A stretch of DNA of 63,793 nucleotides, filler included, from Reclinomonas americana ATCC 50394 (taxonomy: Eukaryota), in assembly GCA_048213135.1 (NCBI GenBank). It is 21 parts of 21 records of this genome, joined end to end, with 100 filler letters (N's around TTAATTAATTAA, not from the genome) between each part and the next. Parts side by side here need not be neighbours in the genome. Positions count along the whole stretch, not along the records: positions 1 to 7,639 come from AFZH01022121.1; positions 7,740 to 10,413 come from AFZH01022122.1; 19 more parts are not named here. One strand, 5' to 3'. Shown here in pieces: positions 333 through 59,252 of the stretch. The position numbers and the translations under genes were made by a program. The notes under the pieces are model-generated. The model ran no database searches, was not told the DNA's origin, and saw nothing but the letters and a program-made list of their open reading frames with translations. The stretch's first letter is position 1, and every line of letters starts with the position of its first letter.

Positions 333-1415
333 TCACAGATGCAGTTGTGGATCCACGAGACATCGATGCACCACAACCTCCGCCTCCTCCACCATGAAGC
401 AGCGCAACACAAGCTCCGGCAGACAGCGAGGGTCTGCCTCCTCGCCCTCACAGCACTGCAACTCCTGCACCGCCTGCCTGGCCATGCGCGCTGCGTCCAG
501 CTCGCACCGTGCAAGGCCGCAGGGCGTGGACCACACACGCACAGTGTTGTCCATACTCCCACTCACAGTGTACTGACCGCAGGGGGCGATGGCAACAGAA
601 AACACCCATCCAGCGTGAACCATTTGTTGCACTTCCTTGCCACTCGCCAACGACCACACTCGCACAGTGCTGTCGCCTCCCCCACTCACCACATGCCGAC
701 CATCGGGGGTGACGGCGACAGAGTATATCTGCCTGCGATGTCCCTCCATTCGCCACACCTCCTCTCCACTCGCCAGCGACCACACTCGCACGGTCTTATC
801 CTCGCTCCCACTCACAACATGGAGGCCATCTGGTGTGACGGCAATACTCCACACACCCCAAGTATGTCCCTCCAACCGTCGCACCTCCTCTCCACTCGCC
901 AGTGACCACACGCGAGCTGTCTTGTCCTCGCTTCCACTCACCACGTGCCGACCATCGGGTGTGACGGCGACAGATCGCACATAGTCGGCATGACCCTCAA
1001 GCTGTTGGACCTCCACGCCACTCTCCACAGACCACACTCGCACGGTCTTGTCGAACCCTCCACTTACAATGTGCTGTCCATTGGGAGTGATGGCCACTGA
1101 CTCTATGCCTCCGTGGTCGCCCTCCAGTTGTCGCACCAGTTCCCCAGTTGCCAGTGACCACACGCACACCGGGCCACCATCACTCCCGCTCACTATGTGC
1201 TGGCCATCGCGAGTCACAGCGACAGACCACACCACACCAGTGAGCCTAGTCTCTTGTCGTGCTTGCGCTCCACTCGCCAGTGACCACACTCGCACTGTCT
1301 CGTCGTGACTGCCACTCACAATGCGTTCACCATCGGGAGTCACGGCGACAGATCGTACCCAGAGAGTGTGTCCCAGCAGCACGTGCTTGCAGAGGAAGAG
1401 AGGAGCGCCGGACAT
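333..1415 (-). CDS. WD40 array gene 1: 7 WD40 repeats + conserved C-terminal tail (360 aa), intronless
   Basis: 7 copies of LEGHxxxVxSVAVTPDGxxVVSGSxDxTVRVWSL, then STPCGLAR...DPRCLPELVLRCFMVEEAEVVVHRCLVDPQLHL*. Confidence 0.93.
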   Translation of the reverse strand: MSGAPLFLCKHVLLGHTLWVRSVAVTPDGERIVSGSHDETVRVWSLASGAQARQETRLTGVVWSVAVTRDGQHIVSGSDGGPVCVWSLATGELVRQLEGDHGGIESVAITPNGQHIVSGGFDKTVRVWSVESGVEVQQLEGHADYVRSVAVTPDGRHVVSGSEDKTARVWSLASGEEVRRLEGHTWGVWSIAVTPDGLHVVSGSEDKTVRVWSLASGEEVWRMEGHRRQIYSVAVTPDGRHVVSGGGDSTVRVWSLASGKEVQQMVHAGWVFSVAIAPCGQYTVSGSMDNTVRVWSTPCGLARCELDAARMARQAVQELQCCEGEEADPRCLPELVLRCFMVEEAEVVVHRCLVDPQLHL

Positions 1416-1665
1416 GGATGGAGAGAGAGAGAGAGAGAGAGAGAGCAGAGGGGGAGATTCAGCTCGTCAAACGTGGACCAAACGTGTGTGTTTGCGTTTT
1501 AGTTGGGACACGCATGACTTCGACTTCGGCAGGCTTCTTCCATCTACGTTGACAACAACAAACTCCGTTGTTCATTTTAACAGGTACAAGAGAAATGGAG
1601 GCAGACGTTCACAGCCTGCGCGACCACAGAACATCTGCATCGGCGTCTGGGATCTTTGCCTATTC

Positions 1666-2748
1666 TCAAAGGTGCAATTGTGGATCCACGAGACATCGAT
1701 GCACCACAACCTCGGCCTCCTCCACAATGAAGCAGCGCAGCACCAACTCTGGCAGACAGCGAGGATCTGCTTCCTCGTCGCTCACGAACTGCATCTCCTG
1801 CACCGCCAGCATCGCCATGCGCGCACAGTAAAGCTCGCGCCGAGCAAGGCCGCACGGCGTCGACCGCACTCGCACTGCCTTGTCGTAACAGCCGCTCACG
1901 ATGTGTTGACCATTGGGAGATACAGTGACAGACTTTACCCAGTAAGCGTGATCCATTCGTCGCACTTCCTCGCCACTTACCAGCGACCACACTCGCACTG
2001 TCTTGTCATTGCTCCCGCTCACCACATGCTGACCATCGGAAGTGACGGCAACGGAGTACACCTGCCTGCGATGCCCCTCCAGTCGCAGCACCTCGTCTCC
2101 GGTTGCCAGTGACCACACTCGCAGTGTCCCGTCCCCACTCCCACTCACCGCGTGCTCACCATCGGGAGTGACGGCAACAGAGATCACCACACCAGTGTGG
2201 CCCTCCAACCGACGCACTTCTTCTCCATCCGCCAGTGACCACACGCGAACTGTCGTATCCAAACTTCCACTCAAAAGAAGACGACTATTGGGAGTGAAGG
2301 CGACCGCGTACACACAATGAGTGTATCCCTCCAACCGTTGTACCTCCTCGCCACTCGCCAGCGACCACACCCGCACAGTTTTATCATAGCTCCCGCTCAC
2401 GATGCGCTGACAGTCGGGCGTGACGGCGACAGCAGCCACCGCACCGATGTGTCCCTCCAACTGGCGCACTTCCTCTCCGCTCACCACCGACCACACTCGC
2501 ACAATGTTGTCAGCACCTCCGCTGACAATGTGTCGACCATCGGGAGTGACGGTGACTGAAAAAACTTGACCATTGTGCCCCTGCAGTTGTCGCACTTCTT
2601 CTCCACTCGCCAGCGACCACACTCGCACAGTCTCGTCGTGACTGCCACTCACAATGCGTTCACCATCGGGAGTGACGGCGACCGAGCTCACCAAATCGGT
2701 GTGCCCTTCCAGTACGTGTTGGCAGAGGAAAACAGGAGCGGTGGACAT
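1666..2748 (-). CDS. WD40 array gene 2 (7 WD40 + tail)
   Basis: ORF 1666-2850; start set at the paralog-conserved MSTAPVFLC (ATG 2748). Confidence 0.92.
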   Translation of the reverse strand: MSTAPVFLCQHVLEGHTDLVSSVAVTPDGERIVSGSHDETVRVWSLASGEEVRQLQGHNGQVFSVTVTPDGRHIVSGGADNIVRVWSVVSGEEVRQLEGHIGAVAAVAVTPDCQRIVSGSYDKTVRVWSLASGEEVQRLEGYTHCVYAVAFTPNSRLLLSGSLDTTVRVWSLADGEEVRRLEGHTGVVISVAVTPDGEHAVSGSGDGTLRVWSLATGDEVLRLEGHRRQVYSVAVTSDGQHVVSGSNDKTVRVWSLVSGEEVRRMDHAYWVKSVTVSPNGQHIVSGCYDKAVRVRSTPCGLARRELYCARMAMLAVQEMQFVSDEEADPRCLPELVLRCFIVEEAEVVVHRCLVDPQLHL

Positions 2749-3012
2749 TGTTGAGAAAATAAGAGAGGGGGGCGTTGTTGGCTCTCTCCAAACTTGAATT
2801 TGACTGTCAAAAGTGCCGGACAAGATGACTTCGCCGTGGAAAGACTTCATCCACCCAAGTTAGGCTTGTTTACTGAAACAGATGCAAAGGGCACGAAGAG
2901 AAATAGAAGGCAAGCGTTGACACGAGTCTGGATCCGGAGAGGCGCAGTCGGCCATTTCAAGTGCACCACAGCGTATGACCTGGGAACCATCATCCGCGAT
3001 CTCCAATACTTC

Positions 3013-4101
3013 TCACAGGTGCAGCAGTGGGTCTACGAGGCAGCGATGTACCAGAACCTCCGCCTCCTCCACAATGAAACAGCGCAACACAAGCTCCGGC
3101 AAACAGCGAGGATCTACCTCTTCATCATCGCTCACGAACTGCATCTCTTGCACTGCCAGCATTGCCGATCGCGCTGTGTCGAGCTCGTGCCGAGCAAGAC
3201 CGCACGGCGTGGACCACACTCGCACAGTATTGTCCAAACTACCGCTCACCACATGCTGACCATCGGGAGAGACGGCAACAGAAAGCACCCAGCAAGTGTG
3301 GCGCCTCAGCTGTCGCACTTCCTCGCCACTCGCCAGCGACCACACTCGCACTGTCTCGTCACCGCTCGCACTCACCACATGCTGACCATCGGAAGTGACG
3401 GCAACGGAGTACACATGCCTGCGATGACCCTCCAGTCGCAGCACCTCGTCTCCGCTTGCCAGTGACCACACTCGCACTGTCCCGTCCCCACTCCCACTCA
3501 CCGCGTGCTCACCATCGGGAGTGACGGCAACAGCGTTCACCACACCAGTGTGGCCCTCCAACCGACGCACTTCTTCTCCATCCGCCAGCGACCACATGCG
3601 AACTGTCTTGTCCAAACTCCCACTCACCACACGCTGACCGTCAACAGCGACTGCGACAGACGTCACGGCTGCAGTGTGTCCCTCCAGTCGCCGAACTTTT
3701 TCTCCGCTTGCCAGTGACCACACTCGCACAGTCCCATCCCCACTCCCGCTCACCACATGCTCACCATCGGGAGTGATGGCGACAGCAGCCACCGCACCGG
3801 TGTGTCCCTCCAACAGGCGCACCTGTTCTCCAGTCGCCAATGACCACACCCGCGCAGTATTGCCATAAACGCCACTAACAATGTGTCGACCATCGGGAGT
3901 GACGGCGACTGAATACACGCGGCCAATGTGCCCCCGCAGTTGTCGCACTTCATCTCCACTCGCCAGCGACCACACTCGCATGGTGTGGTCGTAACTGGCA
4001 CTCACGATGTGTTGACCATCAGGGGTGACAGCGACTGAGGTCACCCAGGAAGCGTGCCCTTTCAGCACGTGCTTGCAGAGGAAGAGAGGAGCGGTGGACA
4101 T
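3013..4101 (-). CDS. WD40 array gene 3 (7 WD40 + tail)
   Basis: ORF 3013-4221; conserved start MSTAPLFLC at 4101. Confidence 0.92.
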   Translation of the reverse strand: MSTAPLFLCKHVLKGHASWVTSVAVTPDGQHIVSASYDHTMRVWSLASGDEVRQLRGHIGRVYSVAVTPDGRHIVSGVYGNTARVWSLATGEQVRLLEGHTGAVAAVAITPDGEHVVSGSGDGTVRVWSLASGEKVRRLEGHTAAVTSVAVAVDGQRVVSGSLDKTVRMWSLADGEEVRRLEGHTGVVNAVAVTPDGEHAVSGSGDGTVRVWSLASGDEVLRLEGHRRHVYSVAVTSDGQHVVSASGDETVRVWSLASGEEVRQLRRHTCWVLSVAVSPDGQHVVSGSLDNTVRVWSTPCGLARHELDTARSAMLAVQEMQFVSDDEEVDPRCLPELVLRCFIVEEAEVLVHRCLVDPLLHL

Positions 4102-4401
4102 AAGTGGGAGGGCGAGCAGGAGGAGAGAAAAAGGATGTTTCCAGCTGGGAGTATGGGCGTGAAGAAGAATGTGCCGGGACAAGATTGACTTCGACATCAA
4201 GTCAGCTTCCTCCGCCGACAATTAGAATAAGCAAGCTTTACTGACATACACGCAAAGGAGTTCCAGAAAGGAGGCAGGTCGTTCAGATACGACGAGTCTG
4301 CAGCGACATCGACGTTGGCCAGCAATGCACCGAGGCACGCGTCACCACGACGCACGACCTCTGCTTCGGCGAGAACCATCGTCCATGACCTTTGCTTCTT
4401 C

Positions 4402-5496
4402 TCACAGGTGCAGTTGCGGATCTGCGAGGCAGCGACGTACCACAACCTCCGCCTCCTCCACCATGAAACACCGCAACACAAGCTCCGGCAAACAGCGAGG
4501 ATCGACCTCTTCACCATCGCTCACGAACTGCATCTCTTGCACCGCCAGCATTGCCGATCGTGCTGTGTCGAGCTCGCGCCGAGCAAGGCCACGCGGCGTG
4601 GACCACAGTCGCACAGTGTCGTCCAAACTACCGCTCACCACATGCTGACCGTCGGGAGAGACGGCGACAGACCACACACCCTCAGTGTGTCCCTCCAGCC
4701 GTTCTTCTTCCTCCCCACTCGCCAGTGACCACACACGCACTGTCCGGTCATTGCTCCCACTCACAACACGCAGACCATCGGGGGTGACGGCGACAGACAC
4801 AACTTGTCCGCTGTGCCCCTCCAGTCGCCGTACCTCCTCTCCACACGCCAGTGACCACACTAGCACAGTCGCATCCTCATCCCCACTCACAGCATGGAGA
4901 CCATCTGGTGTGACGGCAACTGAGAACACCCTCCCCGTGTGTCTGAGGAAACATTGCACTTCTTCTCCGTTCGCCAGTGACCACACGCGAACTGTCGTAT
5001 CCAAACTCCCACTCACCACATGCTGACCATTGGGGGTGACGGCAACAGACCGCACAATGCTCGTGTGTCCCTCCATTCGCAGATCGAGAAGTTCTTCTCC
5101 ACTCGCCAGCGACCACACCCGCACAGTCTTATCGACACTCCCGCTCACGATGCACTGACAATCGGGAGTGACAGTGACAGTAGCCACCGCACCGGTATGT
5201 CCCTCCAACAGGCGCACCTGTTCTCCAGTCACCAACGACCACACTCGCACGGTGCTGTCATGACCGCCACTGACAATGTGCAGACCATCGGGAGTGACGG
5301 TGACTGAATACACGCGGCCAATGTGCCCCTGCAGTTGTCGCACTTGTTCTCCACTCGCCAGCGACCACACTCGCATGGTGTGGTCGAAACTGGCGCAGAC
5401 AGCATGCTGACCATCAGGGGTGATGGTGACTGAGCTTACCAAAGATGTGGGCCCCTGCAGCACGTGTTTGCAGAGGAAGAGAGGAGTGGTGGACAT
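4402..5496 (-). CDS. WD40 array gene 4 (7 WD40 + tail)
   Basis: ORF 4402-5628; conserved start MSTTPLFLC at 5496. Confidence 0.92.
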   Translation of the reverse strand: MSTTPLFLCKHVLQGPTSLVSSVTITPDGQHAVCASFDHTMRVWSLASGEQVRQLQGHIGRVYSVTVTPDGLHIVSGGHDSTVRVWSLVTGEQVRLLEGHTGAVATVTVTPDCQCIVSGSVDKTVRVWSLASGEELLDLRMEGHTSIVRSVAVTPNGQHVVSGSLDTTVRVWSLANGEEVQCFLRHTGRVFSVAVTPDGLHAVSGDEDATVLVWSLACGEEVRRLEGHSGQVVSVAVTPDGLRVVSGSNDRTVRVWSLASGEEEERLEGHTEGVWSVAVSPDGQHVVSGSLDDTVRLWSTPRGLARRELDTARSAMLAVQEMQFVSDGEEVDPRCLPELVLRCFMVEEAEVVVRRCLADPQLHL

Positions 5497-5754
5497 ATGA
5501 GAGAGAGAGAGAAAGAGAGAAAAGGGAGAGGAAAGCGATGTTTCGGCTCGGAGGATGTGTGGGATCGAGAAGAATGCCGGGACAAGATTGACTTCGACAT
5601 CAACGCTTCCTCCAATAATGACAAGCAAGCTTCACTGACATACACGCAGAGGAGTTCCAGAAAGGAGGCAGCTCAGTCAGACACGACAAGTCTGCAGCGA
5701 CATCGACGTAATGCACCGAAGGCCACAGCACGCGCACCTCTGAATCGAGGAGAA

Positions 5755-6861
5755 CTATCGTCCGCGATCTCCACAAAGGTGGAGCCGCGGATCTACAAGG
5801 CATCGATGCACCAGAACCTCCGCCTCCTCCACGATGAAACAGCGCATCACCAGCTCCGGCAAACAGCGAGGATCTACCTCTTCATCATCGCTCACGAACT
5901 GCATCTCTTGCACTGCCAGCATTGCCGATCGCGCTGTGTCAAGCTCGCGCCGAGCAAGACCGCACGGTGTGGACCACACTCGCACTGTCTCGTTGTCACC
6001 ATCGCAAACGATGTGCTGGCCATCGGAAGTGACGGCGACAGACAGTACCCAGTCAATCTGTCCCTCCAGTCGCTGCACCTCCTCCCCACTCACCAGTGAC
6101 CAAACGCGGATTGTGCTATCAGCGCTCCCGCTCACCACATGCTGACCGTCGGGGGTGACGGCGACAGACCACACAGAGTCAGTGTGTCCCTCAAATCGAT
6201 ACACCTCGTCGCCACTAGCCAGTGACCACACTAGCATGGTCGCATCCGCACTCCCACTAACAATGTGCTCACCATCAGGAGTGACGGCGACAGACCATAC
6301 CGACAAAGAATGTCCATTCAGCCGCCTCACCTCGTCGCCACTCGCCAGCGACCATACGCGAACTGTGTTATCGGCGCCCCCACTCACCACATGCTGACCA
6401 TCGGGGGTGACAGCCACAGATAGCACCCCCACAGTATGTCCCTGCAGTCGCCGAACTTCCTCTCCGCTTGCCAGCGACCACACTCGCACAGTCTTGTCAT
6501 TGCTGCAGCTCACGATGAGCTCACCGTCGGGAGTGACAGCGACAGAGTGCACTCTTCCAGTGTGTCCCTCCAGTCGCCGAACTTCGTCTCTGCTCACGAG
6601 CGACCACACGCGCACTGTCTTATCGACACTCCCGCTGACAAAGTGCTTAGAATCGGGAGTGACGCGAACACAATTCACCCAACCAGTGTGCCCCTCCAAA
6701 CGTCGCACTTGTTCTCCACTCACACGAGACCACACTCTCACTGTGGTGTCTTGACTGCCACCCACGATGTGCTGGCCATCGGGAGAGACTGCGACACACC
6801 GCACTGCTTGGGTGTGCCCTTCCAGTACGTGTTGGCAGAGGAAGAGAGGAGCGGTGGACAT
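5755..6861 (-). CDS. WD40 array gene 5 (7 WD40 + tail, extended C-terminus LHLCGDRGR)
   Basis: ORF 5755-6957; conserved start MSTAPLFLC at 6861. Confidence 0.92.
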   Translation of the reverse strand: MSTAPLFLCQHVLEGHTQAVRCVAVSPDGQHIVGGSQDTTVRVWSRVSGEQVRRLEGHTGWVNCVRVTPDSKHFVSGSVDKTVRVWSLVSRDEVRRLEGHTGRVHSVAVTPDGELIVSCSNDKTVRVWSLASGEEVRRLQGHTVGVLSVAVTPDGQHVVSGGADNTVRVWSLASGDEVRRLNGHSLSVWSVAVTPDGEHIVSGSADATMLVWSLASGDEVYRFEGHTDSVWSVAVTPDGQHVVSGSADSTIRVWSLVSGEEVQRLEGQIDWVLSVAVTSDGQHIVCDGDNETVRVWSTPCGLARRELDTARSAMLAVQEMQFVSDDEEVDPRCLPELVMRCFIVEEAEVLVHRCLVDPRLHLCGDRGR

Positions 6862-7173
6862 GGTGGGAGAAGAGAAGGGAGAGAAAGAGAGAAAAGGGAG
6901 AAGAAAGCGATGTTTCGGCTCGGAGGATGTGTGTGATCGAGAAGAATGCGGGGACAAGATTGGACTTCGACATCAAGCAAGGCTTCATCCGCCGACAATA
7001 ATGACAAGCAAGCTTCACTGACATACACGCAGATGAGTTCCAGAAAGGAGGCAGGTCGTTCAGACATTAGTCCGCAGCGACATCGACGTCGGCAGGCAGA
7101 GCGCCGAAGGCCACAGCACGCGCGACCTCACGCGCGACCTCTGCATGGAGGAGAACTATCGTCCGCGATCTCC

Positions 7174-7822
7174 TCAATGGTGGAGCCGCGGATCTACAAG
7201 GCATCGATGCACCAGAACCTCCGCCTCCTCCACGATGAAACAGCGCATCACAAGCTCAGGCAAACAGCGTGGATCTGCCTCTTCTTCACTCTCGCACTGC
7301 ATCTCCTGCACCGCCAGCATTGCCGAGCACGCCGTGTCGAGCTCGCACCGAGCAAAGGAGCAAGGTGTTCCCCACACTCGCACCGTGCCGTCGTAACACC
7401 CGCTCACGATGTGTTGACCATCGGAGGTGACGGCCACAGACATCACCGTATCATGGTGCGCCTCCAGTCGTTGTACTTCTGCCCCACTTGCCAGCGACCA
7501 CACTCGCACTGTGTTGTCACTGCTGCCGCTCACCACATGCTGACCGTCGGGAGTGACGGCGACAGATAGTACCCACTCAGTGTGTCCCTCCAGTCGCCGC
7601 ACCTCCTCGCCACTTGCCAGCGACCACACTCGCAATGTANNNNNNNNNNNNNNNNNNNNNNNNNNNNNNNNNNNNNNNNNNNNTTAATTAATTAANNNNN
7701 NNNNNNNNNNNNNNNNNNNNNNNNNNNNNNNNNNNNNNNTTGGGAGTGGCAGTGACAGACCATACATCGCCGGTGTGCCCTTCCAGGTCGTGTTTGCAGA
7801 GGAAGAGAGGGGTGGTGGACAT
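7174..7822 (-). CDS. WD40 array gene 6, interrupted by an assembly gap
   Basis: N-terminus MSTTPLFLCKHDLEGHTGDVWSVTATP at 7740-7822; last WD40s and tail at 7174-7635; gap 7640-7739 (could hide further copies). Confidence 0.8.
7640..7739. other. Artificial contig linker N44-TTAATTAATTAA-N44 (first of 20)
   Basis: The same 100-bp linker starts at 7640, 10414, 12162, 15188, 17205, 19769, 21871, 24788, 28226, 30732, 37321, 39218, 40663, 44095, 46224, 47381, 51289, 53465, 56840 and 61593; the 12-mer gives stops in all six frames. Confidence 0.97.
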
Positions 7823-8119
7823 GGGTGGGAGAAAAGGAGGGAAAGAGAGGAGGGGGGAGGATGTTTCGGCTCGGAGAATTATACGTAGATGACGAGCGTG
7901 ATGTGTCGGGACAAGATTGACTTCGACATCAAGCAAGGCTTCCTCTGCCGACCATTATGACAAGCAAGCTTCACTGGCATACACGCAAAGGAGTTGCAGA
8001 AAGAGGCAAGTCGGCGACATCGACGTTGGCCAGCAATGCGCCGAAGGCCACAGCACGTGCGACTACGACGCACGACATATGCATTGAGGAGAACTATCGC
8101 CCGCGATCTCCGATACTTC

Positions 8120-9208
8120 TCACAGGTGCAGTCGCGGATCCACGAGGCATCGATGCACCACAACCTCGGCTTCCTCCACGATGAAACAGCGCATCACTAG
8201 CTCCGGCAAGCAGCGAGGATCTACCTCATCATCATCGCTCACGAACTGCATCTCCTGCACCGTCAGCATTGCCGATCGCGCCGTGTCAAGCTCCCGCCGA
8301 GCAAGACCGCAAGGCGTGGACCACACTCGCACCGTGCTGTCGTAGCCGCCGCTGACAACGTGTTGGCCATCGTGAGTGACGGCGACAGACCACACCTCCC
8401 CAGTATGTCCCCTCAGCAGTTTTACTTCCTCCCCACTCACCAGCGACCGCACTCGCACTGTCCGGTCACTGCTCCCACTCACGATATGCCGACCATCGGG
8501 AGCTACGACAACAGAAAACACTCGGTCGGTGTGTCCCTCCAGTCGCCGCACCTCCTCTCCACTCGCCAGTGACCACACGCGGAGTGTCTTGTCTTCACTC
8601 CCACTCACAACATGGAGACCATCTGGTGTGACGGCAACTGAGATCACCACACCAGTGTGGCCCTCCAACCGACGCACTTCTTCTCCATCCGCCAGCGACC
8701 ACACGCGAACTGTGTTGTCCAAACCCCCACTCACTACGCACTGGCCATCAGGAGTGACGGCGACAGACAGCACGCTCCTAGTGTGCCCCTCCAACCGTTG
8801 CACCTCCTCGCCACCTGCCACAGACCACACTCGCACAGTCAAGTCGGCGCTCCCACTCACGATGAGTTCGCCATCGATGGTGACAGCAACAGCGTTGACC
8901 GCACCAGTGTGTCCTTCCAGCCGACGCACCTGTTCTCCAGTCGCCAGCGACCACACTCGCACAGTCTTGTCAGCACTTGCGCTTAGAATGTGTCGATCAT
9001 CGGGAGTGACAGTCACAGACATCACCCAGTTGGTGTGCCCCTGCAGTCGTCGCACATGTTCCCCACTTGCCAGAGACCACACGCGCACGGTGCGGTCGTA
9101 ACTGCCGCTCACGATGTGCTGTCCATCGGAAGTGATGGTGACTGAGCTTACCCAGTAAATGTGTCCCTGCAGCACGTGTTTGCGGAGGAAGAGAGGAGTG
9201 GTGGACAT
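8120..9208 (-). CDS. WD40 array gene 7 (7 WD40 + tail)
   Basis: ORF 8120-9310; conserved start MSTTPLFLRK at 9208. Confidence 0.92.
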   Translation of the reverse strand: MSTTPLFLRKHVLQGHIYWVSSVTITSDGQHIVSGSYDRTVRVWSLASGEHVRRLQGHTNWVMSVTVTPDDRHILSASADKTVRVWSLATGEQVRRLEGHTGAVNAVAVTIDGELIVSGSADLTVRVWSVAGGEEVQRLEGHTRSVLSVAVTPDGQCVVSGGLDNTVRVWSLADGEEVRRLEGHTGVVISVAVTPDGLHVVSGSEDKTLRVWSLASGEEVRRLEGHTDRVFSVVVAPDGRHIVSGSSDRTVRVRSLVSGEEVKLLRGHTGEVWSVAVTHDGQHVVSGGYDSTVRVWSTPCGLARRELDTARSAMLTVQEMQFVSDDDEVDPRCLPELVMRCFIVEEAEVVVHRCLVDPRLHL

Positions 9209-9463
9209 GGGTGGGAGGGAGAGCAGGAGGAGAGAAAAAGGATGTTTCCAGCTGGGAGGATGTGCGTGTTTTGAAAAAGAATGTGTCGGGACAGGATTGA
9301 CTTCGATCAAGGCTTCCCCCAGTTATGACACAAGCTTCACTGACATACATGCAAATGAGTTCCAGAAAGGAGGCAGGTCGTTCAGATACGACGAGTCTGC
9401 AGCGACATCGACGTTGGATACAGATCTAATACACAAAAGAACTCCTTCACTTCATATATCGTT

Positions 9464-10548
9464 TCACGGTAATCTATCTCGTTTCCGCTCCCACACTCGA
9501 CCGTACAAGGCCGCCGACACCATTCCGCTGCCGGAAAACGTCGACGCGCCCAGCTCTTGCGTATTTCGCGCCCTGCTCAGCGCCTCCTGCATGGCGTCGG
9601 CGTCGTCCAGCGAGTGCGTAAGCACCGGTGGTGGCGTCAACCACCACGTGGCATCGGCGCGCGACAGCACCGCACCGCCATTCATCAGCACCACCGGGAA
9701 CACAAAGGTGTCGTCGGAGAAGCGACCGCGAATGGTAAAGTAGTCGAACACCGTGTCGGCAAAGAACACACGATCGAGGCACGTCGCGTCGTCCGAGTTG
9801 CGGCAGCGGAACAGGGCGCACACCTGCAACTCGACTCCGAGCTTGCTGCTGACGCCGTCAAAGACGCCCACCGCGTACGTGGCATCGGTGGCATTGGAGA
9901 AGCGCGAGCCGGGCGACTGGTGGCTCACCGAGAAGGAGAACTCGCAGCAAAAGTCGTTCTGTCCACACACCTCCACATTGGTGTCGTAGGCACCCGGCTC
10001 CGCCTCAAACACCTCCATGGTGAACTCGTCCTTGTCGGCCAGCAAGTCGACCGGTGGGTTCCACGGAGGTCTGCGCAGCGCCGCGGGGATTGGCGGTGGC
10101 GGCTCCGGAGTCACCTCGGCCTGCACCACAGACACCAGCATCTCGCTCTTGGGCTCGAACGGCGAAACATTAACAAACGTCGCCACGGCGTCGCCGCGCA
10201 CAAAAATGCCCGAGCCAGTCATGCTCTTCGAGGGGTCGTCGAGGTTGGCCGCCAGCAGGACCGATTGCGTGGAGCGTGACCAGGCTTGTTGGATCTGTGA
10301 GGGAAGGGGGGGAAGGGGGAGGGGGGGAAGGGGGAGAAGGGGGGGAGGGGGGAAGGGGGGGAGGGAGGAAGGGGGAGGGGGGAAGGGGGGAAGGGGGGGA
10401 GGGGGGAAGGGGGNNNNNNNNNNNNNNNNNNNNNNNNNNNNNNNNNNNNNNNNNNNNTTAATTAATTAANNNNNNNNNNNNNNNNNNNNNNNNNNNNNNN
10501 NNNNNNNNNNNNNCTCTCTACTACTACTCTCTCTCTCTCTCCTCTCTC

Positions 10549-10586
<38 letters not shown>

Positions 10587-53750: not shown

Positions 53751-54827
53751 ATGTCACCCATCCTCATTCCATCAAAATGTCTCGAGGGACACGCGAGCCT
53801 TGTGCACTCTGTCGTCGTCACTCCCGACAGTCAGCATGTCGTGAGCGGGAGCCAGGACAAGACTGTGCGCGTGTGGTCACTGGCAAGTGGCGAGGAGGTG
53901 CTCCGGTTGGAGGGGCACACTGGTCCCATTCTATCGGTCGCGGTAACCCCCGATGGCCTGCACGTTGTGAGTGGAAGCGGAGACCGCACAGTGCAAGTGT
54001 GGTCACTGGCAAGTGGAGAGCAAATACGTCGGCTGAGGGGACACTCCAGTGCAGTTCTCTCCGTCGCGGTTTCTCCCAATGGTCAGTACGTTGTGAGTGG
54101 AGGGAAGGACGGAACTGTGCGCGTGTGGTCACTGGCGAGTGGTGAGGAAGTGCGACAGTTGAAAGGCCACACGTCGACTGTGCAGTCTGTCGCTGTTTCT
54201 CCCGATGGCCTCTTCATTGTGAGCGGAGGTGTTGACGAGACAGTGCGAGTGTGGTCGCTGGCGAGTGGTGAAGAATTGCGACGGTTGGATGGGCACACTC
54301 GCCCTGTAGTCGCCGTCTGTTCCAATGGTCACGAGATTGTGAGTGGTAGCCGCGACATGGTGCGATTGTGGTCCCTGGTGAGTGGCGAGGCACTGCGACT
54401 GCTGGTGGGACACAGCAGAGTCGTGATGTCCCTCGCCGTCTCGCCCGATGGACAGCACGTTATGAGCGGGAGTACAGACGACGCCATCCGACTGTGGTCC
54501 GTGGCAAGTGGTGAATTGGTGCGCTTGTTGGAGGAGCACACAAGCTCGGTGAGTTCTGTCGTCTTCACTCCCGACGGTCAGTACATCGTCAGCGGCAGCT
54601 GGGACAAGACCGTGCGTGTGTGGTCCACTCCGCTTGCGCTTGCTGGCCAGGAGCTCGGCGCAGCGCGTGCGGCGTTACAGGCGGTGCAGGAGATGCAGCA
54701 ACAGGAGGAGGAGGAGAAGGAGCCAGATTCTCGTTGCCTGCCGGAGATGGTGTTGCGCTGCTTCATAGTCGAGGATGCGTCGGTTATTGTGTATCGATGC
54801 AGCGTGACCCCTGGGTGGCATCTGTGA
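53751..54827 (+). CDS. WD40 + tail family member 8 (7 WD40, intronless)
   Basis: Same repeat consensus as the array; tail STPLALA..DSRCLPEMVLRCFIVEDASVIVYRCSVTPGWHL*. Confidence 0.92.
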   Translation: MSPILIPSKCLEGHASLVHSVVVTPDSQHVVSGSQDKTVRVWSLASGEEVLRLEGHTGPILSVAVTPDGLHVVSGSGDRTVQVWSLASGEQIRRLRGHSSAVLSVAVSPNGQYVVSGGKDGTVRVWSLASGEEVRQLKGHTSTVQSVAVSPDGLFIVSGGVDETVRVWSLASGEELRRLDGHTRPVVAVCSNGHEIVSGSRDMVRLWSLVSGEALRLLVGHSRVVMSLAVSPDGQHVMSGSTDDAIRLWSVASGELVRLLEEHTSSVSSVVFTPDGQYIVSGSWDKTVRVWSTPLALAGQELGAARAALQAVQEMQQQEEEEKEPDSRCLPEMVLRCFIVEDASVIVYRCSVTPGWHL

Positions 54828-55283: not shown

Positions 55284-56433
55284 ATGTCACTTTTTCCTCC
55301 TCCTCCTCCTCCCCCTCCCCCTCCTCCTCCCCCCTCCTCCTCCCCCTCCCCTTGTCTTTCTGACGAAACACTGCTTGCAGCATGATTCTCCAGTGCACTG
55401 CGTCGTCGTCACTCCCGACGGTCGGCATGTCGTGAGCGGGAGCCAGGACAAGACTGTGCGCGTGTGGTCACTGGCAAGTGGCGAGGAGGTGCGACGCATG
55501 GAAGGCCACACTGGTCCCATTCTATCGGTCGCGGTAACCCCCGATGGCCTGCACGTTGTGAGTGGAAGCGGAGACCGCACAGTGCAAGTGTGGTCACTGG
55601 CGAGTGGAGAGCACATACGTCGGCTGAGGGGACACTCCGGTGCAGTTCTCTCCGTCGCGGTTTCTCCCAATGGTCAGTACGTTGTGAGCGGCAGTGGCGA
55701 CAAGACAGTGCGAGTGTGGTCTCTGGCGAGCGGAGAAGAAGTGCGACAGTTGAAAGGCCACATGTCGACTGTGCGGTCTGTTGCCGTCACTCCCGATGGT
55801 CAGCATGTCGTAAGCAGAGGGAAGGACGAGATAGTGCGAGTATGGTCACTGACAAGTGGTGAAGAACTGCGACAGATTGTGGGGCGCGTTGGAGCAAACC
55901 CTTTATATTCTGTCGCCGTCACTCGCGATGGTCAGTACGTTGTGGATGTGAGCTGGGACGGAAACATTCGGGTGTGGTCGCTGGCAAGTGGCGAGGACAT
56001 GCGGCAGGTGAAGGAATATCCTGAATGGATAGATTCTGTCGCTGTGTCTCCCAACGGACAGCACGTTGTGAGTCCGAGTACCGACAGAACTGTTCGGCTG
56101 TTGTCCCTCGCAAGCGGAAAGATGGTGCGTCTGTTTGAGGAGCACACAAACTTTGCGAGATCTGTCGCCTTCACTCCCGACGGTCAGCACATCGTCAGCG
56201 GCAGCTGGGACAAGACCGTGCGTGTGTGGTCCACTCCCAGTGGCCTTGCTCGTCTGGAGCTCCACGAAGCGCGTGCGGCATTGCTGGCGGTGAATGGGAT
56301 GCAGCGAGCTGTGCCGATTGACGAGGAGCCCGATTCTCGGTGCCTGCCGGAGATGGTGTTGCGCTGCTTCATCGTCGAGGATGCGGCGGTTATCGTGCAT
56401 CGGTGCAGTGTGACCCCTGGGTGGCATCTGTGA
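55284..56433 (+). CDS. WD40 + tail family member 9 with probable poly-Pro N-terminus (apparent +1 frameshift at C6 run 55329-55334)
   Basis: ATG 55284 MSLF(P)n is in a different frame from PPLVFLTKHCLQHD..7 WD40..DSRCLPEMVLRCFIVEDAAVIVHRCSVTPGWHL*. Confidence 0.85.
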
Positions 56434-57119
56434 CGAGTGAGTGGTGATGTTTTCTTTCCTTCTCTTGCTCTTACCTCCGGAACTGAGTTTGGTTGTCTGC
56501 TTGCTTGAGGGGCCGTGTGCGTGTCTGCGTTTTATTTTCTTCTTCAGAGTTCGCGTAATCGTCGTCGTGTAATGTAATTCGCGTGTTGCCGTCGTGCAGC
56601 CCATTTGCAGATACACTTTTTTCTTTGCAGTCACCTCGCCATCTCCAACTACTCTTTTCGTGGACGATATCCTGACCGCCCGAACCGCTTTTTTTGCCCG
56701 TCTCTCTCCCTCCATCATAGCAGGCATCATCACGCTTCGTTGCATCAATGATCTATCCTGCATTTCTTCTCCTTCTCCCCCTTTCCCGTTCTCCTGCTCG
56801 TCCGGCTCGTCTCTCTTCTCCTCTCCCCCTCTTCGCCGTNNNNNNNNNNNNNNNNNNNNNNNNNNNNNNNNNNNNNNNNNNNNTTAATTAATTAANNNNN
56901 NNNNNNNNNNNNNNNNNNNNNNNNNNNNNNNNNNNNNNNCCCTTCGCCCCTTCTCTCTCTTCCTCTCCCCCTTCTCCCTCTTCCTCTCCCTCTTCCTCTC
57001 TCTTCCTCTCCCCCTTCTCCCTCTTCCTCTCCCTCTTCCTCTCTCCCTTCCCTTCCCCCGTCCTTCCCCCTCCTCCATTCCCTTTCCCTTCTTCTCCTCC
57101 TTCCCCTTCATTCCTCCTC

Positions 57120-59000
57120 CCCCACCACCAACGAATGCGCCCTCCCACACGCCACTGCCACCACCCGCCGCGCACCGCGCACCTCTACCCGCGCCGGCCG
57201 CTCCAGGCAGAACGGCCGCTCCACCCCACACTGCCCGTACACCGAGCTTCCGAATGCATACAAGCGACCCGACTCGGTCACCAACAGTGTGTGCTCGGCG
57301 CCGCACGCCGCGCTCAGCACCGGCTCGTCGAGCTTCAACACGCGCGTGAAAATCGCGGCATCGTCGCTGCTGCCGTTGCCGAGATTGCCGCCGTACGCCC
57401 CATTGCCAATGTCGCCCTTGCTGCACCACAACACACGTGTTATGAGCGAAAGAGGCACGCGAACACACACGCACGCATACACGCGCGCGTGCAAGAGAAA
57501 CATCAAAGGGCAAAGCTGCTTCGATAAGGGCCACGCACCCACACGCATACACACATTATCGCAAACACTCACACATATACACTGAATTCTGCCACCACAC
57601 AAGCCACTGCGTCGACTTTCTTCCTTTCTCTTTCCCACGTGCGAGAGAGACATTAAAAGGCAAAGCTTCTCCGATAAGGGCCACGCACCCACACGCATAC
57701 ACACATTCTCGCAAGCATACACACACACACACACGCTGTCTTTCGGCCACCACACAAGCCATTGCGTCGACTACCTTTTTCTCCATTTCCTCCTTCTCTC
57801 CCTTCTGTTACTTTCTCCCCCTTCGCTCCCTGTCTCACCTCCCACCCAGTCGCCGTTGCTCTCCCCTCTTTCTCGGTTTCTTCCTATTTCCATGTTGCCC
57901 TCCCCTGCTTCGCTGTCTCACGTACTAAACACTCGCCAGTGCTCCTCCCCTTCAGTTTTCTTTCTCTTTCCCACGTGCAAGAGAAACATCAAAAGCGCAA
58001 AGCTATTATGATTAGGGCCACGCACCCACACGCAAACACCTCGCCCTCCTCCGACATGGCCAACGAGTGAAACGCGCCGGCCGCCACCGCCCGCACACGC
58101 ACCGACACTGGCGCACCCCTCTCGTCGACAAACGGCACCACAGCAGCCTGCGCGCACAGCTTCCCATCCTGCTCCACACTCTCCATCACACTCTCCGTGT
58201 GCCCGAGCCCGAGCGCGCCATTCCCATTCGTTCCAAACCCAAACACGCGACCCTCACGCGCGCTCACCAACAGCGCGTGGTGGCCACCAGCCGCCACATC
58301 CACAACCTGCCAGCAGAAGCATGGGCACCACGCGAGGAAGGATCCCGCGTGCACACCATACCTTGTCATCGTCACTGCTGGCATGCACCGCCGAGTAACC
58401 ACCGCGACTCCAGCCTGCCATGACCACTTGCGACCCATCCTCCGACAGGAACAACGAGTGACTGATGCCAGCAGCCACCTTGCGCACGGCAAAGGGAAGC
58501 TGCAGTTGCACCGGGTCCGCAGCACACTCGGCCTCGATGCCCAGTCGACCATGCGCGTTGGTGCCTTTGACAAGTGATCAATCATCGGAACAATAAGAGG
58601 TAGATTGTATGCAGTGTCACTTACCGCACGCCCACACATGACCGTCCTCCGTCACCAACAGTGTATGATAGGCGCCACATGCGACGTCGCAGACTCGCAC
58701 GTCTTCTGGCAACACAAAACGTCGCCATGTTTCGGCAGAGGAGGGTGGCACTTGTCCATAGCGCGAGTGCCCTGCTCCCCATGCGCTCCCGTCACTGAGT
58801 ACGCACACAGAGTGCTCCAGGCCACATGCGACAGCACTGCAGCAGAGTGAGAGCAAAGGAGAAGAGACAAGAGAATCGCGAGTGGTAGAGACTGACCGGC
58901 ATGTCGCACTGGCAAATGCCTCGCAGCGTGTGAAGGGCGATGGTGTGTCACTGCTTCCACACTGGCCATATTCGTTGCTGCCTGCTGCCCACAATGCCAT
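57120..59000 (-). CDS. RCC1/UVR8-like repeat protein, multi-exon, 3' end in gap
   Basis: MALWAAGSNEYGQCG; VACGLEHS; VACGAYHTLLVTEDGHVWACG; VAAGGHHALL..GFGTNGNGALGLG; AACGAEHTLLVTESGRLYAFGSSVYGQCG. Confidence 0.9.
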
Positions 59001-59252
59001 GTCTTCTGCGAATGTGTTGAGAAGGAGGAAATGTCCTGCGTCTGCATCTGTCAGTCTGTGGAACCCGGCAGGGTTTTTGGTCAACCTTGACCTGCTAGTG
59101 TCCGGTTCGCCGGGTTACAACCCGGCGGCTGAGCAGGTCACCTCGCTGGTCGCAGGCGAGCCGGAAAGAAGTCCGTGAGGGAGCGTCGCGTGTCAGTGTC
59201 CCATGTCCCGATCAAACTCGACTCTCACACTCAGAGCGCAAGTGGTCACAAA

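Follow-up and report, generated by a model that had tools for sequence, protein, structure and literature searches.

Stand-alone WD40 propellers combining positive selection on the top face with an invariant orphan tail at a Reclinomonas americana locus: candidate binding modules related to an NLR-type sensor

Results and Discussion

Organization of the WD40 gene array

A tandem array of WD40 genes was analyzed in a 63,793-nucleotide stretch of DNA from Reclinomonas americana ATCC 50394 (assembly GCA_048213135.1), the whole of which is referred to here as the window. The array extends from position 333 to 9208 on the minus strand and, as judged by the listing of open reading frames (ORFs), translation and alignment, consists of six complete genes and one gene (g6) that is split by a gap. 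An original prediction made from the sequence of the window had placed seven genes between the same limits, which coincide exactly with the stop codon of g1 and the ATG of g7; six of the seven are complete, and the seventh is present in two gap-separated parts. The complete genes are g1 (333–1415, 360 amino acids), g2 (1666–2748, 360 amino acids), g3 (3013–4101, 362 amino acids), g4 (4402–5496, 364 amino acids), g5 (5755–6861, 368 amino acids) and g7 (8120–9208, 362 amino acids), all on the minus strand and all encoding seven WD40 repeats followed by a C-terminal tail. The most divergent copy is g1, which has the N-terminal closing strand and has lost the GH motif in blades 2 and 3. The proteins of g4 and g5 are distinguished by a two-residue insertion after blade 3 and by a six-residue C-terminal extension of the tail, respectively, and the g3 protein was used for modeling. 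The C-terminal part of g6 (7174–7635, minus strand) spans 153 codons covering the end of blade 5, blades 6 and 7 and the tail, whereas its N-terminal 27 codons (7740–7820, minus strand) encode the start methionine, the closing strand and the beginning of blade 1. Between the two parts lies a linker (7640–7739; N44-TTAATTAATTAA-N44), standing in place of about 546 bp of g6 or of further copies.

The head-to-tail unit of approximately 1.35–1.4 kb that had been predicted is apparent from the ATG-to-ATG distances of 1333, 1353, 1395, 1365 and 1388 bp in the steps that do not cross a gap. Likewise, the fully sequenced copies had been described as intact, and six out of six are open from ATG to stop in a single frame. 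Long open frames, up to 287 amino acids in length and rich in Ser, Pro, Thr and Arg, are also found on the plus strand antisense to the WD40 repeats (42–905, 8376–9101 and others). These are probably a by-product of the codon composition of the repeats; the WD40 profile and the purifying selection are carried by the minus-strand frames.

A tblastn inventory of the window returned g1 to g7, two further family members (g8 and g9) and the WD40 part of a large gene (34967–36724), and nothing else. Both g8 and g9 are located outside the array, in tandem on the plus strand. The former (53751–54827) encodes 358 amino acids with seven blades, one of them shortened, and the same tail; the latter (about 55342–56433) has no ATG at the usual place and is open from 55114. 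The open frame of g9 starts behind a proline- and leucine-rich stretch, and GH is lost in several of its blades.

The window is a chain of small contigs connected by 20 artificial linkers (N44, TTAATTAATTAA, N44; for example 7640–7739, 10414–10513 and 12162–12261), with a spacing of 1 to 6.5 kb, typically 2–3 kb, and the order and orientation of the contigs are asserted by the scaffold. Since the contigs are short and one linker cuts g6, the array might be regarded as an assembly or scaffolding artefact, in which copies from elsewhere were stitched together or a single gene was falsely multiplied. However, a single uninterrupted contig (1–7639) carries five complete genes and part of g6, and the following contig (7740–10413) carries g7 and the start of g6. 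Moreover, the copies differ by 17–37% in nucleotide sequence per blade, so that the array does not represent a collapsed or duplicated assembly of one gene, and a divergence of about 20–30% in coding sequence together with distinct spacers is incompatible with a mis-multiplied single copy. An artefact is thus very improbable. Adding back the 182 codons that g6 lacks would bring this unit to its usual length, which agrees with true adjacency of the two contigs without proving it.

Fold of the array proteins

Each array protein, 360 to 368 amino acids in length, is built from a closing strand of about 14 residues, seven WD40 repeats of 42 residues and a C-terminal tail of about 65 residues. The Pfam WD40 model PF00400 matches six of the six full genes with E-values of 5e-70 to 2e-79 (230–259 bits compared to a cut-off of 27), covering six to seven stretches in each. 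Seven repeat anchors are present per full gene at a spacing of 42 residues, the exceptions being one step of 41 residues in g1, one of 41 in g2 and one of 44 in g4. All families detected by Pfam in the seven array proteins are of the WD40 type, and neither a NACHT nor a HET domain was detected.

For the g3 protein, AlphaFold2 predicts a seven-bladed propeller of 28 strands with a predicted local distance difference test (pLDDT) score above 90 over blades 1 to 7. A Foldseek comparison of this model with the Protein Data Bank (PDB) matched only the propeller, with template modeling (TM) scores of at most 0.80 when normalised to the query and of 0.92–0.98 when normalised to the target, at a sequence identity of 28–41%. 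The best matches are designer seven-blade propellers, the repetitive WD40 domains of Thermomonospora and Nostoc (40% identity) and WDR5. With repeat positions numbered from the G of GH as position 0, assignment of the g3 model by DSSP places the d-a loop at positions 0–4, strand a at 5–10, the a-b loop at 11–15, strand b at 16–21, the b-c turn at 22–24, strand c at 25–30, the c-d loop at 31–35 and strand d at 36–41. A full-length homology search retrieved only generic WD40 proteins with 29–62% identity over about 66–94% of the query, and among the 120 matches listed none has a comparable architecture.

Hypervariable positions of the repeats

For entropy calculations and pairwise counts, 44 repeats were extracted in register. 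The scaffold had been described as highly conserved, and most scaffold positions indeed show an entropy below 1 bit. Superimposed on this scaffold are five positions, 6, 22, 4, 24 and 3, with the highest entropies of 3.67, 3.46, 3.39, 3.10 and 2.97 bits, respectively, and 11 to 15 residue types each; the next most variable position of the repeat reaches 2.15 bits. Two of the five are situated in the d-a loop, one is the second residue of strand a, and two flank the conserved Asp of the b-c turn. Their combination gives rise to a distinct five-residue signature in each of the 44 repeats, and these 5 of 42 positions account for 33% of all non-synonymous pairwise differences. All 14 residue triplets listed in the original prediction were recovered from the extracted repeats. 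Its statement that the residues following GH vary freely holds for positions 3 and 4, while position 2 is only moderately variable (Thr in 27 of 44 repeats, 1.90 bits). Position 24, the residue after the conserved Asp, is a fifth hypervariable site that was absent from the earlier list.

The variability is unevenly distributed over the fold. Averaged over the d-a and b-c loops together with position 6, entropy amounts to 2.28 bits, compared to 1.15 bits for the a-b and c-d loops and 0.90 bits for the strands. By convention, the top face of a WD40 propeller is the one formed by its d-a and b-c loops. The variable residues of the predicted g3 propeller fall within the d-a loop, the beginning of strand a and the b-c turn, that is, on the side formed by these loops, which is the top interaction face by this convention and which is where the variable residues had been expected. 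In PMC1805685, a model of HET-E likewise maps the same loops to the top interaction face. The mapping is based on secondary structure, the WD40 convention and the HET-E model.

Positive selection at the variable positions

Selection was analyzed with a purpose-written maximum-likelihood codon code of the MG94 type, in which the synonymous scale is shared across site classes. Nei-Gojobori counts over all repeat pairs yielded a pS of 0.55 and a pN of 0.60–0.72 at the five variable sites, corresponding to a pN/pS of 1.1–1.3. Since such raw counts are near saturation, whole genes, whose blades are positionally orthologous, were compared instead of all repeat pairs. In a joint tree of nine sequences the five variable positions have an ω of 1.90, with a likelihood ratio test (LRT) statistic against ω = 1 of 41.7 (p 1e-10), compared to 0.62 for position 2, 0.26 for the scaffold and 0.24 for the tail. 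Resolved by position and pooled over the seven blades, ω is 1.72 at position 3, 2.11 at position 4, 2.65 at position 6, 2.06 at position 22 and 1.34 at position 24; the value at position 24 is not significant when taken alone, and the remaining 37 positions of the repeat are all below 1.

Because the tree is weakly supported (internal bootstrap values of 49–78) and recombination is present, the test was repeated in a tree-free manner on phylogenetically independent pairs, namely g3–g4, g8–g9, g2–g7 and g1–g5. Over these four pairs the five variable positions have an ω of 1.87 (p 2e-6) and the hotspots defined from the literature, positions 4, 6 and 22, an ω of 1.86 (p 9e-5), whereas the bottom loops and the next most variable scaffold positions, which served as controls, remain at 0.50 and 0.77. 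Restricting the analysis to the three pairs of array genes gives 2.15 (p 5e-7) for the five positions and 2.13 for the three hotspots. The positions for which diversifying selection had originally been proposed, also five in number, likewise display a dN/dS above 1, with an ω of 1.60 (p 3e-4) over the four pairs and of 1.68 (p 5e-4) in the array alone. Across all fits, ω ranges from 0.26 to 0.30 for the scaffold and from 0.18 to 0.24 for the tail. In a parametric null with ω = 1, none of 300 simulations reaches the observed value, the maximum being 1.33.

There is no sign that synonymous sites evolve unusually slowly: the spacers of units g3 to g7 are less diverged, with Jukes-Cantor distances of 0.12–0.39, compared to a branch-length parameter of 0.33–0.7 in the pair fits of the coding sequence. 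Residue usage at the variable sites also deviates from what mutation alone would be expected to produce. Trp accounts for 7.3% of residues compared to an expectation of at most 2.9%, Tyr and Lys are raised, and Pro and Cys are depleted; the associated p-values are optimistic, as paralogues are not independent of each other.

Variable loops can also be a property of ordinary WD40 scaffold paralogues, in which weakly constrained positions diverge by drift or by sub-functionalisation towards housekeeping partners in the absence of adaptive diversification. The old divergence close to saturation, the lack of concerted evolution, the repeat number fixed at seven and the pN/pS of only 1.1–1.3 among all repeats agree with this explanation, and so does the description in PMC5587647 of repetitive WD40 domains with diverse hotspots of which a minority is under purifying selection. 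Drift in weakly constrained loops is, however, difficult to reconcile with the rejection of ω = 1 both in the tree-free pairs and by the null simulations, with an ω of no more than 0.77 at the scaffold positions next in variability, and with the enrichment of Trp and Tyr and depletion of Pro and Cys at the variable sites. Moreover, a tandem expansion to at least nine members sharing one invariant tail is atypical of housekeeping WD40 proteins. Ordinary paralogy as the sole explanation is accordingly judged improbable, and positive selection on the top face is retained.

The C-terminal tail

The array proteins share a conserved C-terminal tail. In g3 it comprises 66 residues (3016–3213, minus strand), predicted to form a helix, an acidic loop and a second helix. 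The tails of g1, g2 and g4 to g7 are encoded at 336–533, 1669–1866, 4405–4602, 5758–5973, 7177–7374 and 8123–8320, respectively, and 29 columns are invariant across nine tails. Modeling of the g3 tail from the nine-sequence alignment gave a helix at residues 299–323 followed by a low-confidence stretch with a pLDDT below 50. With three outside relatives added, 12 sequences in total, helices were predicted at residues 299–322 and 331–356 with a pLDDT of 56–79.

None of the nine tails is matched by Pfam, apart from sub-threshold chance matches such as CENP-F_C_Rb_bdg (E 0.015–0.09). A search of PDB sequences with the tail profile detected no relative (best E 0.28), and no usable language-model neighbour of the tail was present in the protein atlas. 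Only three outside proteins were found when the profile was searched against 1.84 billion representative proteins. The first, P0150, is a fragment of 116 amino acids (E 3.5e-28) that its source names a protein of Reclinomonas americana derived from expressed sequence tags (ESTs); it is 62–67% identical to the proteins of the window. Owing to its EST origin, a relative of the array proteins is transcribed in at least one jakobid. The other two, P0151 (381 amino acids) and P0152 (394 amino acids), are unnamed proteins from Logan assemblies, divergent β-propeller proteins with the tail at the C-terminus. A further search with the alignment of 12 tails and the longer proteins returned only P0151 and P0152, which were already part of the query. 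Judged by these sequence matches, the combination of propeller and tail is older than the array and rare in public data.

Several candidate assignments for the tail were rejected. A metagenomic locus (L001) matching the tail pattern proved to be spurious, as the match is out of frame on a GC-rich contig, where the genuine gene lies on the opposite strand and encodes a membrane protein. A zinc-binding CCCH motif formed by four invariant Cys/His residues was discarded since two of the four are not kept in P0150 to P0152. A peroxisomal C-terminal signal was dismissed as well, given that the g5 protein continues beyond LHL and that P0150 has a different C-terminal end.

F-box/WD40 and SOCS-box/WD40 receptors combine a single propeller with a short helical adaptor, and these families are expanded and positively selected in some lineages. 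By this model, the array proteins would be substrate receptors of cullin-RING-type ubiquitin ligases, the tail a divergent F-box- or SOCS-box-like helix and the top face the site of substrate selection, in a manner known from plants and nematodes, whose F-box families are expanded. An ω above 1 on the substrate-binding face is typical of such substrate-receptor families. The tail is predicted as a helical hairpin, and its invariant motif LPE(L/M)V(L/M)RCF resembles, as far as can be told by eye, the first helix of the F-box. However, the motif is located at the C-terminus and stands one residue out of register with the F-box consensus. In addition, neither the F-box models (PF00646/PF12937) nor SOCS-box models match any of the nine tails at E-values up to 10, and a link to this class was provided neither by the search of PDB sequences nor by language-model neighbours. 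A function as ubiquitin-ligase receptors is therefore of low probability, and the tail is better described as a constant orphan module.

Exchange between genes of the family

Nucleotide identity is 0.74 between the same blades of different genes, 0.656 between different blades of the same gene and 0.655 where both differ. Hence the blades within a gene are no more alike than those of different genes, which indicates that concerted evolution of the type known from the HNWD genes of Podospora does not take place. Overall, identity among the array repeats is about 60% at the protein level and 67% at the DNA level, with a mean protein identity within genes of 0.48–0.63. Local conversion tracts are nevertheless present. 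Blade 5 of g2 and g3 is 97% identical compared to 71–90% for the other blades (heterogeneity p 4e-7), and blade 2 of g8 and g9 is 98% identical compared to 63–92% (heterogeneity p 7e-15), demonstrating mosaic exchange between genes. By eye, the repeat listing shows about 4 differences in 126 bases between blade 5 of g2 (2202–2077) and of g3 (3555–3430). Four amino acid differences distinguish the two blades, one of them at hypervariable position 6, a sample too small to be tested.

The genes are separated by spacers of a 250–312 bp class, exemplified by the one at 4102–4401 (minus strand), with a polypyrimidine tract just before the ATG. Those of units g3 to g7 (4102–4401, 5497–5754, 6862–7173, 7821–8119 and 9209–9463) are 70–89% identical and thus better conserved than the synonymous sites of the genes they separate. 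This conservation may reflect either regulatory constraint or homogenisation.

A NACHT-pentapeptide-WD40 gene at the locus

The large gene returned by the inventory (32690–36988, plus strand), 23 kb from the array, encodes a protein of 1432 amino acids in which about 260 N-terminal residues are followed by a NACHT domain (PF05729, 40 bits compared to a cut-off of 26.7), pentapeptide repeats (PF00805) and 14 WD40 repeats. These repeats share the 42-residue scaffold and the variable positions of the array. The first 260 or so residues gave no match in Pfam or PADLOC, nor in PDB sequences, for which the first 270 residues were the query. The PADLOC output consisted of one generic repeat model along with a P-loop fragment. 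The NACHT part is 25–30% identical to NACHT-pentapeptide-WD40 proteins that their sources name as from Mortierellomycotina fungi and a Glomeribacter bacterium. These have the same three-part architecture as the 1432-residue protein, but no stand-alone propeller with a tail is found among the matches listed. Because the repeat scaffold is common to the array and to this STAND NTPase, the family has probably either split off from an NLR-type sensor domain as a free-standing form or served as the source of such a domain.

The common locus, the shared scaffold and variable positions and the blade-sized conversion seen among the small genes also raise the question of whether the latter serve the NACHT-WD40 gene, either as a reservoir of repeat cassettes for gene conversion or as decoys or regulators competing for its ligand. 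In pairs of one NACHT repeat and one array repeat, nucleotide identity reaches at most 0.79, which does not exceed the values within the array, so that there is no sign of recent exchange. Furthermore, intact reading frames, a start codon, a closing strand and a tail under selection would not be needed in a mere cassette store. The tail also lacks significant similarity to the N-terminus of the NACHT protein: hhalign returned a probability of 0.1%, and the best BLASTP hit (E 0.03) falls on a different stretch. A service role for the NACHT gene is consequently considered quite improbable, and a family acting on its own account is favored. An amyloid-type signaling motif seemingly common to the tail and the NACHT protein N-terminus (VEEA...RC, aligned by eye) was not significant, and no motif pair of the HET-s/NWD2 type is formed by the two.

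Comparison with known WD40 sensors

In the HNWD genes of Podospora anserina, positive selection acts on codons 7/9 and 25/27, which flank the conserved codons 8 and 26, one pair being situated in the d-a loop and the other in the b-c turn (PMC1805685). With an offset of three, these codons correspond to array positions 4/6 around Val5 and 22/24 around Asp23. The array and the HNWD genes (het-e, het-d, het-r) further share 42-residue WD40 repeats on a conserved scaffold and a multigene family with repeat exchange between its members, and a NACHT-WD40 relative is encoded in the array's own locus.

Despite these similarities, the array proteins differ from HNWD proteins in several respects. They lack NACHT, begin directly with the closing strand in place of a HET or other effector domain, and carry the orphan C-terminal tail. 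Exactly seven repeats, constant among the paralogues, form one closed propeller, whereas HNWD proteins contain 10 or more repeats in variable number. Repeat identity within genes is lower (0.48–0.63, compared to about 0.85 or more for HNWD repeats according to PMC4986451), only local conversion tracts are seen in place of concerted evolution, the genes are arranged in tandem, and the one relative of the tail that bears a name comes from a jakobid and not from a fungus. The analogy to fungal HNWD receptors drawn in the original prediction thus extends to the four homologous selected positions, but not to the domain architecture, the repeat identity, the concerted evolution or the repeat number. 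The array proteins would work like the sensor domain of HNWD proteins but are not members of the HNWD family. What is new is the setting in which the same four positions are selected: a stand-alone propeller with an orphan tail, encoded in a tandem array near a NACHT-WD40 gene.

The second group of close relatives is formed by the highly or moderately repetitive WD40 domains of STAND proteins from prokaryotes and fungi, represented by PDB entries 2ymu (Nostoc) and 5yzv (Thermomonospora), which are the best structure and sequence matches (40% identity, target-normalised TM score 0.95–0.98). These domains and the array alike combine a conserved scaffold with diverse hotspot sites. By the classes given in PMC5587647 (Hu et al. 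2017), the within-gene identity of the array places it among the moderately repetitive domains. The same paper reports a minority of repetitive WD40 domains that are kept similar by purifying selection, and the array scaffold resembles this minority on account of its ω of 0.26–0.30. In STAND proteins, however, the WD40 domain is the C-terminal sensor of a large multidomain protein and often contains 14 or more repeats, whereas the array propeller stands alone with its tail and has been amplified as a whole gene. A top face under diversifying selection on a conserved WD40 scaffold is the hallmark of the fungal HNWD allorecognition genes. In PMC1805685, PMC4986451 and PMC5587647, such selection is treated in the context of fungal NLRs, and hotspot diversity in that of prokaryotic repetitive WD40 domains. 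Neither a stand-alone WD40 tandem family of this kind nor jakobid NACHT genes were found described in the open-access literature searched.

Proposed function

Taken together, the data suggest, with a probability of roughly 60%, that the array encodes free-standing WD40 modules for binding, in which the top face is under positive selection and the orphan tail stays constant, and which are related to an NLR-type sensor. The genes would form a family of paralogues that encode small, cytosolic binding proteins of a single domain, each folded into a seven-bladed propeller closed by the N-terminal strand. The scaffold, the bottom loops and the helical tail are held constant by purifying selection, and five residues per blade, about 35 per protein, have been driven apart on the top face by positive selection, each paralogue presenting a different surface on the same scaffold. 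In the most likely mode of action, the top face would bind a ligand specific to the paralogue, and the invariant tail would link every paralogue to a common partner or pathway. Tandem duplication, point substitution on the top face and occasional gene conversion among array members, in tracts the size of a blade, would generate new specificities.

Several points weigh against this interpretation. The tail has no recognisable family and was modeled with only moderate confidence, so that its role as an adaptor would be a guess. The set of five positions was partly chosen post hoc, and the a-priori set of three positions is significant but covers only 21 codons. The codon analysis relies on custom code instead of PAML or HyPhy, the LRT on a single tree with low bootstrap support can be inflated by the recombination detected, and the analysis of pairs, being tree-free, assumes one divergence per pair. 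Divergence is also old, with a branch-length parameter of at least 0.33 even for the closest pairs and a repeat pS near saturation; ω above 1 may hence record a past diversification or neofunctionalisation of paralogues and not an ongoing arms race. Some members may be decaying, as suggested by the two degenerate blades of g1 and the missing start codon of g9. Finally, the order of the contigs across the g6 gap is the one asserted by the scaffold.

The terms receptor and recognition repertoire, used in the original prediction, presuppose a ligand-binding role that the array proteins may have. A role in non-self recognition is possible but can be put forward only tentatively, and endogenous or substrate-adaptor roles are only slightly less likely. 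If recognition is the function, the sensor module of STAND/NLR proteins would be usable by itself, the tail would represent a new coupling domain worth searching for, and the family would offer natural scaffolds for binders, compact as a set and with variable positions that are defined. The most far-reaching possibility, which must be regarded as doubtful, is that a non-fungal protist, probably a jakobid or one of its relatives, maintains in its germline a recognition repertoire of free-standing NLR-type propellers that were released from NACHT, amplified in tandem, diversified on the top face and shuffled by blades, and that signal via one orphan tail to a common effector. If so, the array would represent a new architecture for innate non-self recognition and the tail a new adaptor domain.

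Other features of the window

Directly upstream of g7 and on the same strand, a vanin/biotinidase-like gene (9464–10222, minus strand; Vanin_C E 4e-25) marks the end of the array and continues past the gap at 10414–10513. The region from 10300 to 20000, which separates the array from the plus-strand genes, is dense in purine-rich and dinucleotide microsatellites (GGGGAAGG-type, GA, CT and GT runs of 50 units). Rfam gave no match over the whole window. An RCC1-repeat coding sequence (57111–59114, minus strand) is distributed over three ORFs in different frames, unlike the uninterrupted WD40 genes, which suggests either introns or frameshift errors. The window also contains a poly(A) polymerase fragment.

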